Below, in pieces: positions 2,188 through 5,711 of a stretch of DNA of 5,711 bases. The notes under the pieces are model-generated. The model was not told the DNA's origin. It ran no database searches and saw only the letters and a program-made list of their open reading frames with translations. Each line of letters begins with the position of its first letter. Position 1 is the first letter of the stretch. This DNA comes from a virus. The stretch covers positions 1 through 5,711 of the IMG/VR virus record IMGVR_UViG_3300045988_001120; one strand, given 5' to 3'. A program made the position numbers and the translations under genes.

Positions 2188-3024
2188 ATGGGAGCATTAT
2201 CAGGATTCTTAACAGCACTAAACGTAGCGGGAAACGTAGCAAATACGGTCGGAACAATCGCCGGAGCAGCACAAAACGTTGCTGGAGCTTTTGGCGGATG
2301 GGGTCAGACAGGCAGCAGCCAAAGCCAAGGCGGAAGTACAAGCCAAGGCGGTGGACATTCCGAAAGCGGAAGTCAAGCGGGAACAAACATTCAACAGGTA
2401 AACGACTGGCTTAAGCAAGCATACGCATACCAAGGCCAAGAAGCTGCCATGCAAGGTAAATACAACAGTCAAAGCATGTTAAAGCAGATGGGTTACAACA
2501 CCTTACAAGCAATCATGCAAGGCGTATATAACCACATTGAAAACAGCGTAGCAATGAACTACAACAGTGCAGAAGCACTAGCCAACCGTGAATGGCAAGA
2601 ACACATGTCAAGCACTGCATACCAGCGTGCAGTTGAAGACATGAGAAAAGCGGGACTGAATCCAATCTTAGCTTTTTCAAACGGCGGAGCGAGCACGCCG
2701 GGCGGTAGCGCGGGAACAATCAGCGGTGCGAGCATGGGACTAGCAAGCAGCAGCGCACTAGGAGTAAGCCGAAGCGGTGGATTTGTACCAAACGCATACG
2801 AAAGCAATAGCTGGAGTCAAAGTGACTGGTACAATGCTGCACAGAGCTGGCAGCAGATGCTTAGCAGCACACACATGACACCTTACGGACTGCAAAATGC
2901 ATTAACAGAAATCGCAAGCGATACAGGCAAAGCAATTGACAAAAACGTACCACAAGGAAGCAAAAAACACACTAGCAAATCCGGAGTAACACACGGAGGA
3001 GGAGGAGGTAACATCAAAAAATGA
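2188..3024 (+). CDS. VP2: Minor capsid / DNA pilot protein VP2-like, 278 aa
   Basis: The gene follows VP1 directly. It has a hydrophobic Gly/Ala-rich N-terminus (MGALSGFLTALNVAGNVANTVGTIAGAAQNVAGAFGGWG) and a Gly/Ser/Gln low-complexity segment. The central block STAYQRAVEDMRKAGLNPILAF is the conserved block I recall for gokushovirus VP2. Its stop overlaps the VP4 start (ATGA). Confidence 0.85.
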   Translation: MGALSGFLTALNVAGNVANTVGTIAGAAQNVAGAFGGWGQTGSSQSQGGSTSQGGGHSESGSQAGTNIQQVNDWLKQAYAYQGQEAAMQGKYNSQSMLKQMGYNTLQAIMQGVYNHIENSVAMNYNSAEALANREWQEHMSSTAYQRAVEDMRKAGLNPILAFSNGGASTPGGSAGTISGASMGLASSSALGVSRSGGFVPNAYESNSWSQSDWYNAAQSWQQMLSSTHMTPYGLQNALTEIASDTGKAIDKNVPQGSKKHTSKSGVTHGGGGGNIKK

Positions 3025-4040
3025 GTTGTTACAAGCCATTAATAAGGCTGTACAACCCGGAAAACAAAGATATAAGCGGGCGGGTGTATTCACTTGCCCG
3101 CTTTTCTGAAATATCGGGAAAGCAGCTCAAATATGAAGATTTAATGTTTAGAAAAGATGTCATGTTGATACCATGCGGACAGTGTATCGGATGCAGAATC
3201 AGACAAAGAGAGGACTGGACAACACGAATAGAATTAGAAGCACGAGACTATCCAAAAGAAGAAGTTTGGTTTATAACATTAACCTATAACGATGATCATG
3301 TGCCAGGCATGATAGTAAACACAGGCGAAATCACGCGAAAAGTACAATACGTCTGGAGACCGGGAGAGAAGCGCCCAGAAAGCGTCCAAACTTTGCTATA
3401 TACTGACGTTCAAAAGTTCTTAAAACGCCTCAGAAAGGCTTATAGGGGCAAATTACGCTATTTTGTGGCGGGAGAATACGGAGAACAGACAGCTCGGCCA
3501 CATTACCATATGATACTGTATGGATGGAGACCAACAGACCTAGAGCACCTATACAAGATACAGCACAACGGATATTTCACAAGTAAATGGTTAGAAAACC
3601 TGTGGGGCATGGGGCAAATACAGATAGCACAAGCAGCACCAGCAACATATAGATATGTTGCGGGATACGTTACAAAAAAAATGTACGAAATTGACGGCCA
3701 GAAAGCAAACGTATACTACGAACTAGGACAACAAAAACCTTTTGCGTGTATGAGTCTTAAACCAGGCCTAGGAGATAACTATTACCAAGAACACAAAGCA
3801 GAAATCTGGAGACAAGGCTACATCCAATGCACAAACGGCAAACAAGCACAAATTCCACGCTATTATGAAAAAATGATGGAAGCTGAAAACGCACAAAGAT
3901 TGTGGAGAATTAAACAGAACAGACAAGCAGCAGCCATAGCAGAAAACCGGCTTAAGTATGAAAATGCAGACTTTGAAGAGCAATGCAAGACAAAAGAAAG
4001 AGTGATAAAGAAGCAGATGAAGAAGAGGGGGACACTTTAA
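3021..4040 (+). CDS. VP4: Replication initiation protein VP4 (HUH rolling-circle endonuclease, phiX174 gpA-like), 339 aa
   Basis: Three RCR motifs are present. Motif 1 is FITLTY (3270-3287). Motif 2, the HUH motif, is PHYHMILY (HYH at 3501-3509). Motif 3 is YVAGYVTKK, with two Tyr spaced Y-x3-Y (3654-3668). An N-terminal PCGQCIGCR cysteine cluster is typical of gokushovirus VP4. A (GGA)4GG run at 2995-3008 provides the SD. Confidence 0.93.
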   Translation: MSCYKPLIRLYNPENKDISGRVYSLARFSEISGKQLKYEDLMFRKDVMLIPCGQCIGCRIRQREDWTTRIELEARDYPKEEVWFITLTYNDDHVPGMIVNTGEITRKVQYVWRPGEKRPESVQTLLYTDVQKFLKRLRKAYRGKLRYFVAGEYGEQTARPHYHMILYGWRPTDLEHLYKIQHNGYFTSKWLENLWGMGQIQIAQAAPATYRYVAGYVTKKMYEIDGQKANVYYELGQQKPFACMSLKPGLGDNYYQEHKAEIWRQGYIQCTNGKQAQIPRYYEKMMEAENAQRLWRIKQNRQAAAIAENRLKYENADFEEQCKTKERVIKKQMKKRGTL

Positions 4041-4050
4041 CGGTGTCACC

Positions 4051-4084
4051 TAGCCCAGTACCTATCAAGTAAGGTACTGGGCTA
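4051..4084 (+). terminator. Perfect 13-bp stem-loop (TAGCCCAGTACCT / AGGTACTGGGCTA, 8-nt loop) 11 nt after the VP4 stop; terminator-like or ssDNA origin hairpin
   Basis: 4051-4063 pairs perfectly with 4072-4084 around the loop atcaagta. The downstream sequence ttgtcattt is only weakly T-rich. Confidence 0.5.
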
Positions 4085-4143
4085 TTGTCATTTAAAGAGT
4101 CCATGTATCAATCTATTCAGTCTATCAAATAGCTATACTTTAT

Positions 4144-4187
4144 CGCGCGTGCGCACGCGCGCGAAGCGCGCACGCGCGCACGCGCGG
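4144..4187. repeat. GC-rich alternating purine/pyrimidine palindrome (imperfect ~20-bp hairpin/cruciform; three copies of GCGCACGCGCG)
   Basis: 4144-4163 (20 nt) and 4166-4186 (21 nt) each alternate Y/R perfectly and are separated by AA. Pairing i+j=8330 gives 4144-4154 with 4176-4186 (11 bp), then 2 bp and 5 bp segments separated by single mismatches. GCGCACGCGCG starts at 4151, 4168 and 4176. Only 6 of 44 bases are A/T, in an otherwise moderate-GC genome. Confidence 0.85.
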
Positions 4188-4200
4188 CTCTTCAGCGCTA

Positions 4201-4230
4201 TTGTTCGCAAGCTCACAAGCGCTGTATAAT
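4201..4230 (+). promoter_or_regulatory. Candidate sigma70-type promoter: TTGTTC (4201-4206), 18-nt spacer, TATAAT (4225-4230)
   Basis: The -10 hexamer is perfect and is preceded by TG. The -35 matches only 3/6 and the spacer is 18 nt. It would transcribe into the iteron region. Confidence 0.35.
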
Positions 4231-4270
4231 ATATAACTTGTTGTAGGAGTAGTAGTAGAGATAGTGGAAA

Positions 4271-4438
4271 AGTTGAAAAGTACTAAAATTTAACGCTAAA
4301 GCGTAAATAAAAAGCAAAAAATGCTGTTGAAAGTTTTGTTGAAAACTTGTTGAATTGTTGAAAGTCCGTCAAAATGACGAAAACCTTTGTGCAACATTTT
4401 GTTGAAAACCTGTTGAAAGTGTTGAAAGTGTTGAAAAC
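4271..4438 (+). repeat. Iteron array: 9 direct copies of GTTGAA, 8 of them as TGTTGAA(A/T), in two clusters of four
   Basis: TGTTGAA starts at 4325, 4337, 4348, 4356 and at 4400, 4411, 4420, 4429. AGTTGAA is at 4271 and a degenerate TGTTGTA at 4239. There are two subtypes, TGTTGAAAGT and TGTTGAAAAC. TTTTGTTGAAAAC is exact at 4334 and 4397. All copies are on the same strand. Confidence 0.9.
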
Positions 4439-4581
4439 GCGCACAGCGCTTACAATGAATGGATTAGCCGAGTTCCGCATACGCTCCACACGGCAAGGCG
4501 CTGAAGCGCTTTCAAAACAAAGGAGCAAAACCGGGTTACAAGAGAAGGTTACAATTTTATTACAAAACAGCAAAATCCCGG

Positions 4582-4610
4582 TTGACAATCGGGAGCTTTT
4601 ATTTTATAAT
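4582..4610 (+). promoter_or_regulatory. Perfect consensus sigma70 promoter TTGACA-17 nt-TATAAT upstream of the peptidase gene
   Basis: TTGACA is at 4582-4587 and TATAAT at 4605-4610, with a spacer of exactly 17 nt. The predicted start near 4617 lies just before the SD AAAGGGGG (4617-4624) and ATG 4632. Confidence 0.75.
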
Positions 4611-4631
4611 ACAGACAAAGGGGGCGCAAAA

Positions 4632-5024
4632 ATGCTTAAATGTTATATCATGAACACAGACGGAAATGTACAACTTGCAAGACACTTCAAAGTAAAAGAA
4701 TTTGCATGTAAAGACGGAAGTCCGATAGTATTCATAGATGACTACTTGTATAACGTTCTGGACATCCTCCGACATAAACTAGGGAAACCAGTCATTATCA
4801 CCAGCGGATACAGAACACCAGAGTGGAACAAAAAATGTAACGGAGCAAAATACAGCTACCACATGCGCGGTATGGCAGCAGATATCCGAGTCGATGGCAT
4901 GAGCACAAAAGAACTTGCCAACAAACTGAATGAAATCGTCCCGGATGAATGCGGCATTATCGTATACAACACTTGGGTGCATTTTGATGTGCGAAACGGG
5001 AAAAAATACAGAAAGGGGGTATAA
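4632..5024 (+). CDS. Zinc D-Ala-D-Ala carboxypeptidase / M15-family (M15_3-like) peptidoglycan peptidase, putative endolysin, 130 aa
   Basis: The zinc-ligand pattern is SYHMRGMAAD (H at 4860-4862, D at 4881-4883) plus WVHFD (H at 4980-4982). The KEFACKDG and TSGYR blocks are typical of small phage M15 peptidases. ATG 4632 is preceded by AAAGGGGG at 7-nt spacing. The track ORF starts at 4374, but that extension only translates the iteron array. Confidence 0.87.
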   Translation: MLKCYIMNTDGNVQLARHFKVKEFACKDGSPIVFIDDYLYNVLDILRHKLGKPVIITSGYRTPEWNKKCNGAKYSYHMRGMAADIRVDGMSTKELANKLNEIVPDECGIIVYNTWVHFDVRNGKKYRKGV

Positions 5025-5504: not shown

Positions 5505-5711
5505 ATGCAGCATGAATATTTTGGCCTGTGGGACAGTGTAGCAAAGTGCTATGCATGGGTAGGCGAGAGCAAGAACAATGCAACCTTTGCACGCATGTGC
5601 AACGTAATGGCAAAGGATGAAAAAACGTTTGTAGGACAAGCACCTGGGGACTATACCGGCTTCAGACTGGCAGCGTTTGACGATGAAACCGGCGAGTTTA
5701 CCAACGACAAG
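5505..5711 (+). CDS. VP5: VP5/ORF5-like non-structural protein, 5' part (79 aa in total once joined across the circular junction to position 88)
   Basis: ATG 5505 lies 10 nt after AAGGAGA (5488-5494). The frame stays open to the window end: MQHEYFGLWDSVAKCYAWVGESKNNATFARMCNVMAKDEKTFVGQAPGDYTGFRLAAFDDETGEFTNDK. The pattern (WDSVAK.., ..ATFARM.., DYTGFRLAAFDDETGEF) resembles conserved blocks of gokushovirus ORF5 proteins as I recall them. It is missing from the track because no stop lies inside the window. Confidence 0.68.
   Translation, partial: MQHEYFGLWDSVAKCYAWVGESKNNATFARMCNVMAKDEKTFVGQAPGDYTGFRLAAFDDETGEFTNDK
5657..5711. repeat. Terminal redundancy (copy 2), identical to 1-55
   Basis: See feature 1-55. 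Confidence 0.9.

Follow-up and report, generated by a model that had tools for sequence, protein, structure and literature searches.

A tract of alternating pyrimidines and purines lies in the single long intergenic region (positions 4041-4631) of IMG/VR record IMGVR_UViG_3300045988_001120. The window analysed, 5,711 bases, is the circularly permuted 5,656-nt genome of a circular gut gokushovirus, with positions 1-55 repeated at 5657-5711, and every gene lies on the + strand. Comparison with related genomes indicated that the tract maintains both its purine/pyrimidine alternation and the complementarity of its two arms, the latter in the sense of the strand complementary to the genes. These comparisons suggest that the tract is a conserved, strand-specific DNA hairpin of the phage replication region. 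As to its role, our tentative choice, held with somewhat less than even confidence, is a hairpin on the strand that is displaced and packaged, about 60 nt 5' of the nick site, at the usual place of a single-strand origin (sso).

The tract consists of the following parts:

4144-4163, - strand: arm 1 of the alternating CG tract, a 20-nt pyrimidine/purine run, 70-99% conserved in 70 relatives
4164-4166, - strand: central A-rich spacer, the hairpin loop, AAG on + and CTT on -
4167-4186, - strand: arm 2 of the tract, the more conserved arm, 2.5 copies of GCGCGCAC

Arm 1 (CGCGCGTGCGCACGCGCGCG) alternates perfectly and is separated by AA from a second perfectly alternating run at 4166-4186 (GCGCGCACGCGCGCACGCGCG), just as an earlier note on this DNA had described. 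The two runs (21 and 20 nt) are the longest of the genome, the next being 14 nt. First-order Markov simulations of the genome (300) gave a mean of 13.4 nt and a maximum of 22 nt for the longest alternating run, so chance is very far from accounting for two neighbouring CG-rich runs of 20 nt or more. The central spacer sets the arms out of alternation phase and is kept in nearly all variants with a changing sequence (AA, AAA, ATA, GTA, TA), and the loop of the hairpin, 3-4 nt long, is freely variable (AAG, AAA, TAG, ATA and others). The thrice-repeated GCGCACGCGCG that the note had pointed out is present (4151, 4168 and 4176), and its 12-nt palindrome GCGTGCGCACGC (4147-4158) is part of a perfect palindrome of 18 nt, 4144-4161. 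The tract is also the compositional outlier it was said to be, at 86% G+C against 44.5% for the genome. It holds 16 CpG in 44 nt, the observed/expected ratio elsewhere being 1.0, together with 9 GCGC and 10 CGCG sites, and is followed by GCTCTTCAGC on the + strand (ATAAAGTATAGC on the - strand).

On the + strand, the predicted single-stranded DNA (ssDNA) fold was the one proposed earlier, 11+2+5 bp with two single mismatches and a 3-nt loop (-27.7 kcal/mol). It was unexceptional against dinucleotide shuffles (z = -1.8; 10/200 folded equally well), because any CG-rich alternating sequence folds well. The complementary strand formed an uninterrupted 20-bp stem of G:C, A:T and G.T pairs (-32.0 kcal/mol, z = -3.1), which 0/200 shuffles equalled. 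The stable single-strand structure expected of an sso was found on both strands, with 20 bp on the complementary and 18 bp on the coding strand. Across 55 variants, hairpin energies ranged from -9.5 to -31.8 kcal/mol on the + strand and from -17.0 to -32.5 kcal/mol on the - strand, the latter being more stable in 54 of the 55 by a mean margin of 5.2 kcal/mol. Coding-strand hairpins of real tracts did not differ from those of randomised alternating tracts of equal composition (mean z = -0.03). Taken alone, this + strand energy test was misleading, as it would suggest that there is no stem; a parameter-free census of facing pairs resolved the point. The coding strand, which had been assumed to be the packaged one, therefore does not bear out the earlier expectation of an extremely stable hairpin in packaged ssDNA, and its stem carries many A.C mismatches.

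Pairing was assessed in a 16-bp inner stem over 21 distinct variants. Paired cells amounted to 82.7% in the + sense and 99.1% (333/336) in the - sense. Double changes at five stem positions (16 cells) were compensatory, C:G to T:A or the reverse between the arms, a result matched by 0/500 shuffles; slid registers of the stem scored lower than the fixed register. Among 15 lineage representatives aligned in that register, 37/44 Ts stood opposite A (expected 14.8 +/- 2.8, P < 0.0005), and + strand appositions were A.C in 58 cases versus G.T in 5. Alternation was maintained alongside pairing. Transversions made up 1-1.5% in the tract versus 5-14% in the flanks, transitions being equally frequent in both, so that the transition/transversion ratio (ts/tv) was 8.7-10.4 in the tract versus 0.55-1.3 in the flanks. 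The compensations in the tract were all transition pairs and none broke the alternation, whereas the neighbouring hairpin described below has a transversion-type one (CCCAG/CTGGG to or from CCAAG/CTTGG). When rare variants in VP4 were polarised, C>T was about equal to G>A. Since the mutation spectrum of the clade is roughly symmetric, the strand asymmetry of the tract does not reflect a simple genome-wide bias. An explanation of the excess of A over T by mutation spectrum was disfavoured by the symmetric VP4 spectrum, which is not decisive.

The tract, as a bipartite alternating element of about 43 nt, was found at the equivalent place in all 13 of the first GenBank relatives, with differing sequences. 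In a larger set it was present in 84/94 genomes (VP4 48-100% identical), 48-210 nt past the VP4 stop codon; most of the genomes without it are contigs that end before or inside it. This is the positionally conserved intergenic GC hairpin that the earlier note had proposed to seek in related microviruses. Distant lineages also carry it (L009, L150, L211, L215 and L216, by our genome labels). In L150, a very distant microvirus with a different gene order and a VP1 that is 37% identical, the layout is a terminator followed by CACGCACACACACACGCACGCG-AA-ACGCGTGCGCGCGCGCGCGCGCG. The matches listed in a scan of viral contigs with CRCGCRCG... included L150, many unrelated large phage contigs, and microsatellites. 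Uninterrupted alternation over 44-45 nt was seen in L006 and L011, the latter being T-free and of the form (CGCGCGCA)n. In an alignment of 70 genomes the tract was an island of 70-99% identity between indel-rich spacers and a block of about 300 nt that is about 90% conserved, and its gap fraction was 0.075 versus 0.40-0.45 in the flanks. These comparisons suggest that the tract is under selection, yet it is not indispensable.

The tract was recovered in GenBank records of several laboratories and countries and in IMG/VR contigs of at least nine metagenomes. Judged by this recurrence in independent assemblies, a one-off assembly artefact, which had been raised as an alternative, is excluded. 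Four contigs (L034, L035, L078 and L085) end inside or just before the tract, and it is evidently hard to assemble through; as an assembly breakpoint it may bias the completeness of gokushovirus genomes in databases. An 8.8-kb contig, L015 (4111-6600), is joined to foreign sequence 13 nt before the tract. The possibility that this marks an attachment or junction site at the tract was rejected, as the foreign part encodes a tailed-phage portal and terminase and the contig is an assembly chimera.

The best-conserved non-coding feature of the window is a second hairpin, which lies between the end of VP4 and the tract:

4051-4084, - strand: VP4-proximal hairpin with a 12-13-bp stem and the loop TATCAAGTAA on + and TTACTTGATA on -, about 95-99% conserved

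Its stem covaries, with a wholly different sequence in L212 and L213, but the loop stays the same, reading TATCAAG on + and CTTGATA on -. Its wobble asymmetry resembles that of the tract (+ strand A.C 15, G.T 2). The loop contains ACTTGATA, which is common to the annotated viral-strand origin of phiX174, CAACTTG^ATA (cleavage core). The strongest hairpins of the cultured gokushoviruses Chp2 (L218; 2904-2941, loop TCTACTTGAT) and SpV4 (L219; 512-544, loop ATTACTTGTTATA) carry the same loop motif on the coding strand. Of about 120 further genomes, among them L220-L322, 71 have a hairpin of the form ...CAGTTAC / yTACTTGATgt / GTAACTG... on the coding strand. In the clade of the window the motif lies on the complementary strand, as it does in L268, L300 and L301, which are independent lineages with every gene on the + strand. 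Its loop makes hairpin 4051-4084 a candidate for the double-strand origin, with the putative Rep nick placed on the complementary strand. The hairpin is probably also the + strand terminator of the VP1-VP2-VP4 operon, as a scan flagged it as terminator-like on that strand. The tract itself does not look like a nick site: its short loop varies freely, and ACTTGAT(A) stands in the adjoining hairpin instead. The phiX174 gpA origin (CAACTTG^ATATTAATAAC) differs in lying outside any hairpin, inside gene A and on the coding strand, and the motif it has in common with hairpin 4051-4084 is absent from the tract. The + strand has three copies of TATCAA (read as TTGATA on the other strand), one in the loop of this hairpin (4063-4068) and two in the moderately conserved spacer before the tract (4106-4111 and 4122-4127); these copies could be Rep-binding repeats.

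The orientation of the loop motif was compared with base composition at four-fold degenerate sites in 58 genomes, and the T-enriched strand tracked the motif. The skew AT4 was -0.42 +/- 0.31 in 46 genomes with the motif on the coding strand ('+' genomes) and +0.53 +/- 0.14 in 12/12 '-' genomes. T and A at these sites were 50% and 25% in Chp2 and 61% and 7% in phiX174 (AT4 -0.80), and in the window A was 47% and T 11%. We lean towards the view that in the clade of the window the strand which Rep nicks, displaces and packages is not the coding strand but its complement, a virion polarity that these sequence comparisons make somewhat more probable than its opposite. Whole-genome A-richness was rejected as evidence of polarity, phiMH2K being equally A-rich, and was replaced by this comparison of four-fold sites with motif orientation. 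The four-fold sites of phiMH2K (L217), a cultured Bdellovibrio phage, are A-rich and C-rich on the coding strand (AT4 +0.31, GC4 -0.56), a deamination-like signature on the complementary strand, and its virion polarity may deserve a check; a canonical ACTTGAT hairpin was not found in its genome. A literature search returned no report of such an inverted polarity.

In the single-strand-origin reading, Rep (VP4) would nick the complementary strand in the 4051-4084 loop, at ACTTG^ATA, and that strand would then be displaced and packaged. After infection, host single-stranded DNA-binding protein (SSB) would coat the circular ssDNA and be unable to melt the tract hairpin. The exposed duplex would be the entry or recognition site for the host priming machinery, whether RNA polymerase, primase or a PriA-type primosome, and priming there would start second-strand synthesis. 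The tract would be an accessory, exchangeable module and not an essential one. In the supercoiled replicative form (RF) its 44 bp would pass to Z-DNA at a superhelical density (sigma) of about -0.035, perhaps as a by-product or a second function. This reading agrees with the constraint on one strand, with a tract that comes and goes as a module between variable flanks, and with an orientation tied to the genes and the origin hairpin. The sense in which pairing is kept belongs to the strand that bears the ACTTGATA loop and the T-enrichment at four-fold sites. The tract is non-coding and lies near the putative origin hairpin in all relatives that have it. On the motif-bearing strand it is on the 5' side of the putative nick site ACTTG^ATA, at a distance of about 60 nt in the window and 4-165 nt in relatives, a position near, and as is typical of an sso upstream of, the putative double-strand origin. 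Its orientation is unchanged when the conserved block next to it, block A, is inverted, which ties the tract to the genes and the origin hairpin. The earlier note had offered a minus-strand origin or a nick signal: complementary-strand initiation is still the best single guess, whereas the nick signal fits hairpin 4051-4084 with its ACTTGATA loop.

Rolling-circle plasmids have their sso, and M13 its minus origin, a short way upstream of the nick site, on the strand that is displaced. Coliphage minus origins are SSB-resistant intergenic hairpins of the packaged strand, and the tract as read here resembles them in this: hairpins B and C of M13/f1 are recognised by RNA polymerase and the oriC hairpins of G4 by DnaG, and phiX174 has the n'/PriA primosome assembly hairpin. 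The M13 minus origin is directly 5' of the plus-strand nick, and the tract would be placed likewise relative to the ACTTG^ATA hairpin, should the viral strand be the complementary one. Deletions of the M13 minus origin are viable but impaired, a viability that matches the dispensability of the tract in some relatives. The tract shows no sequence similarity to the coliphage minus origins; it has a purely alternating CG/CA stem and a 3-nt loop and, judged by eye with no dedicated search, no promoter-like or CTG-flanked features. Its host is probably a Firmicute and theirs is E. coli, and its functional strand is apparently antisense to the genes. The sso of Gram-positive rolling-circle plasmids (ssoA, ssoU, ssoT and ssoW) are strand- and orientation-specific and are found on the displaced strand, close upstream of the double-strand origin. 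Rich in secondary structure, they are modular, exchangeable and dispensable, their loss leading to ssDNA accumulation while the replicon is kept. These plasmid elements are imperfect hairpins of 150-300 nt with RSB and CS-6 (TAGCGT/A) motifs, whereas the tract is 43 nt long and is a candidate member of the family only. The phiX case is summarised in PMC9865509. The same paper describes intergenic hairpins in small microviruses, the reekeekee- and roodoodooviruses, which were predicted by folding the intergenic region with DNA parameters, are conserved among relatives with compensatory substitutions, and are proposed, unproven sites of negative-strand initiation (PMC9865509). These belong to other clades, have other sequences, and are not described there as alternating CG, and the passages on them do not say which strand is constrained. 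Hairpin cis-elements in the intergenic regions of ssDNA phages are known, and a conserved, strand-asymmetric hairpin of alternating CG is a new variant.

Several observations weigh against a single-strand origin on an antisense packaged strand. The tract is truly absent from five relatives (L088, L063, L212, L213 and L214), in which another site would have to substitute for it if it is an sso, and in L053 (3228-3360) a 14-nt deletion leaves arm 1 as CGCGCG with arm 2 intact. No known sso motif, including CS-6 TAGCG(T/A), was seen to be conserved in or beside the tract, the flanks being inspected by eye with no dedicated search; the nearest to CS-6 is a TAGCGC on the complementary strand in the adjacent hairpin hp2, which is variable among relatives. 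The need for a hairpin leaves the strict alternation unexplained by itself. The wobble control in hairpins of the '+' group was uninformative (A.C 6, G.T 5), their stems being nearly perfect, and the tract yields very few rare variants to count (C>T 4, G>A 5). In addition, 4/46 '+' genomes violate the skew rule, and textbook Microviridae are positive-sense. As a side observation, L053 is a potentially useful natural partial knock-out of the tract.

The alternation itself would be the selected property if the tract were a supercoil-driven B-Z switch in the RF, acting through CG/CA steps in the duplex. Its two 20-bp arms would then absorb up to about 8 of the roughly 32 superhelical turns of the 5.6-kb circle and would tune torsion for cruciform extrusion and Rep nicking at the origin hairpin or for nearby promoters, and could also block read-through transcription. 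The runs of 20 and 21 bp exceed the approximately 12 bp of alternating CG/CA-rich sequence that Z-DNA formation needs, the alternation is kept in relatives at the ts/tv values given above, no compensatory change breaks it (unlike in the neighbouring hairpin), and in L006 and L011 it runs without interruption. A SIBZ-type calculation, with dinucleotide energies from Table 1 of PMC3024258 and with assumed values for K, the helical repeats and the junction twist, gave probabilities of Z-DNA of 0.09, 0.82 and 0.99 at sigma -0.030, -0.035 and -0.040, and made the tract the dominant Z site of the genome. At sigma -0.05, Z-DNA formation released 48 kcal/mol, versus 25 kcal/mol for a cruciform costing at least 26. 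The Z-DNA potential claimed earlier is thus physically credible, and easier to realise than a cruciform, with the transition at physiological negative superhelicity seen in the model only. Like the (CG)n/(CA)n inserts studied in plasmids (PMC3024258), the tract has two 20-bp alternating blocks, and its modelled transition at about -0.035 on a 5.6-kb circle falls within the range measured there for 26-32-bp CG inserts in pBR322 derivatives. Those inserts are engineered or sporadic, with no demonstrated selection, whereas the tract has kept its alternation throughout a phage clade. The tract further shows dyad symmetry, strand asymmetry and a centre that is out of phase, none of which Z-DNA requires. 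Selection on the duplex predicts strand symmetry, and neither the excess of A.C over G.T (58 vs 5) nor the preference of T for a place opposite A (37/44) follows from it; both are strong. Treated as a Z-Z junction, the conserved A-rich centre with its phase break costs about 12.6 kcal/mol and leaves two 20-bp blocks in place of one better 44-bp block. In every lineage the two arms are matched in length, a requirement of a hairpin but not of Z-DNA, and stems that evolve through wobble intermediates likewise show a high ts/tv. There is also no established Z-DNA-dependent regulation of this kind in bacteria or phages. A Z-DNA switch is unlikely as the primary explanation, and it and the hairpin reading are not mutually exclusive.

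A still less probable explanation, to which we give little weight, is that the tract is a functionless, self-propagating simple-sequence hairpin, formed and homogenised as CG and GCGCGCAC units slip or are duplicated, with hairpin-templated repair contributing, and harmless or hitch-hiking by the origin; it may then also act as a recombination or assembly breakpoint. Direct-repeat variants agree with this (L011 is (CGCGCGCA)x4, the arms of L090 and L010 are direct repeats, and arm 2 of the window is itself a repeat array), as do the losses in several relatives, the slippage-like deletion in L053, contigs that break and chimerise at the tract, and a patchy spread in which L150 has the tract and its relatives L300-L322 have none. 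Neutrality is hard to reconcile with the same place and size of about 43 nt in about 90% of a diverse clade, in genomes of an economical 5.6 kb whose flanks turn over by indels, or with the purging of transversions and the 99.1% pairing in one sense with compensatory changes. An element acting in RNA is very improbable. The VP1-VP2-VP4 mRNA could carry it in its 3' untranslated region as a very stable stem-loop, serving as exonuclease barrier or read-through terminator, or it could be a hairpin in a complementary-sense RNA, either an antisense transcript or the primer copied from the viral strand. The tract does lie 60 nt downstream of the terminator-like hairpin of the operon, its orientation follows the direction of the genes and not that of block A, and the complementary-sense pairing, which tolerates G.U-type wobbles and avoids A.C, is what an RNA stem would show. 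The mRNA-sense stem, however, contains the A.C mismatches that an RNA stem would not tolerate, all genes are on one strand, and a scan found no sigma-70-type promoter for an antisense transcript across the tract. No intrinsic terminator was detected at the tract by the scan, which flagged only 4051-4084 and 4576-4594 as terminator-like, and no U/T run follows the stem on either strand; the covariance models of Rfam 15 gave no match to the intergenic region at E <= 1, and a tRNA/tmRNA search found none. By eye, the sequence to the right of the tract differs with the presence of hp2 and the orientation of block A. Least likely of all, and only marginally credible, is a sequence-specific site for a duplex-binding or modifying protein: gyrase might have a strong site there, the 18-bp palindrome CGCGCGTGC|GCACGCGCG might be the operator of a dimeric regulator, or the GCGC/CGCG sites might form a cluster of methylation or restriction targets. 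The density of GCGC and CGCG sites, the adjoining origin-like elements, and the fact that one arm is usually palindromic (arm 1 in the window; arm 2 in L004, read by eye) speak for it. The sequence, though, drifts freely by transitions among relatives, with A and T positions moving, the strand asymmetry is left unexplained, phages normally avoid restriction sites and do not accumulate them, and the genome encodes no candidate binding protein.

The most inclusive version of the single-strand-origin reading combines an inverted origin and antisense packaging, making 'negative-sense' microviruses of this clade together with at least two other lineages (L268; L300/L301), with a tract of two states that would be a near-perfect G:C/G.T virion hairpin launching the second strand and, in the RF, a Z-DNA switch next to the Rep nick hairpin. 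Taken as a whole, this combination appears doubtful. The orientation of the loop motif together with the four-fold skew would be a cheap, sequence-only predictor of the packaged strand. The strand analysis suggests several polarity flips within the Microviridae, which would revise a family-level textbook trait, and the sequence evidence for flipped packaging polarity in several gokushovirus lineages, which is directly testable, is perhaps a more surprising result than the tract. Although gokushoviruses count among the most abundant human gut phages, our literature search found no mapped gokushovirus replication origin and no description of the alternating tract. If the proposed reading is correct, the large intergenic region parses into a pan-subfamily Rep nick hairpin (ACTTG^AT loop) and an adjoining candidate second-strand origin, and tests of the host priming pathway, of infectious clones and vectors, and of assembly breaks at the tract are opened. 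The tract is one of the cleanest natural cases of apparently conserved purine/pyrimidine alternation in a bacterial virus, and it makes a role of Z-DNA in prokaryotic replicons directly testable.

Downstream of the tract, two further elements were delimited:

4193-4224, no strand assigned: hairpin hp2, with the stem CAGCGCT/AGCGCTG and the conserved 18-nt loop ATTGTTCGCAAGCTCACA, between the tract and block A
4225-4436, no strand assigned: conserved non-coding block A, about 210 nt, about 90% conserved, common to distant gokushoviruses

AGCGCT occurs at 4194, 4218, 4445 and 4505. The AGCGCT-type palindromes that had been reported to flank the tract are present, but the copy at 4194 is not isolated, as it pairs with 4218-4223 in hp2. 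This hairpin is predicted in folds of both strands and has compensatory stems among relatives (CAGCGCT/AGCGCTG, CGGCGCT/AGCGCCG, GGCACT/AGTGCC and CAACGCT/AGCGTTG); about half of the relatives have the entire 36-nt unit, and the others lack it. A promoter TTGTTC-18-TATAAT at 4201-4230, with the tract as upstream element, was considered and rejected: its '-35' lies in the loop of the covarying hp2, and the whole spacer is absent in half of the relatives, where the tract abuts the AT-rich block.

Block A opens with the AT-rich segment TATAATATATAACTTGTTGTAGGAGTAGTAGTAG, after which come two groups of four GTTGAAA repeats, one on each side of the hairpin CGTCAAAATGACG (4366-4378); it may be an iteron array, an enhancer or a small-RNA gene. 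The tract is always immediately 5' of block A on the + strand, and the orientation of block A varies among close relatives. It is inverted in L008, L025, L039, L064, L076, L077 and L063, and in L214 it is inverted and moved between VP2 and VP4. The supposition that the tract never co-occurs with an inverted block A was refuted by the first six of these. The start of block A resembles a loop variant, yCTTGTTGT. A second highly conserved non-coding block, block B (4437-4520), keeps its orientation when block A is inverted and contains a small hairpin that the earlier note had pointed out, GGCGCT-GAA-GCGCT (4497-4510).

The genes of the window are arranged as follows:

81-479, + strand: VP3 scaffold
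476-2149, + strand: VP1 capsid
2188-3024, + strand: VP2
3021-4040, + strand: VP4 Rep
4632-5024, + strand: M15 peptidase
from 5505 across the circular junction, + strand: VP5
+ strand: three small open reading frames (ORFs) besides the named genes

In GenBank the closest records, about 84% identical, come from gokushoviruses of the human and pig gut. A scan of 185,579 species genomes with VP4 gave no match, and hence no integration junction and no host assignment. Clostridiales have been suggested as hosts of related phages (PMC3394797). A perfect sigma-70/sigma-A consensus promoter, TTGACA-17-TATAAT (12/12), lies at 4576-4610 upstream of the M15 peptidase gene, and its -35 element is within a small hairpin (4576-4594), the one also flagged as terminator-like. 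This promoter, together with strong Shine-Dalgarno sites, fits a Firmicute-type host. A 216-aa ORF that begins with ATG (4374-5024) runs in frame from inside block A into the peptidase gene; this extension is probably spurious, as it crosses the invertible block A. The peptidase gene has its own ribosome-binding site and promoter at 4582-4631.

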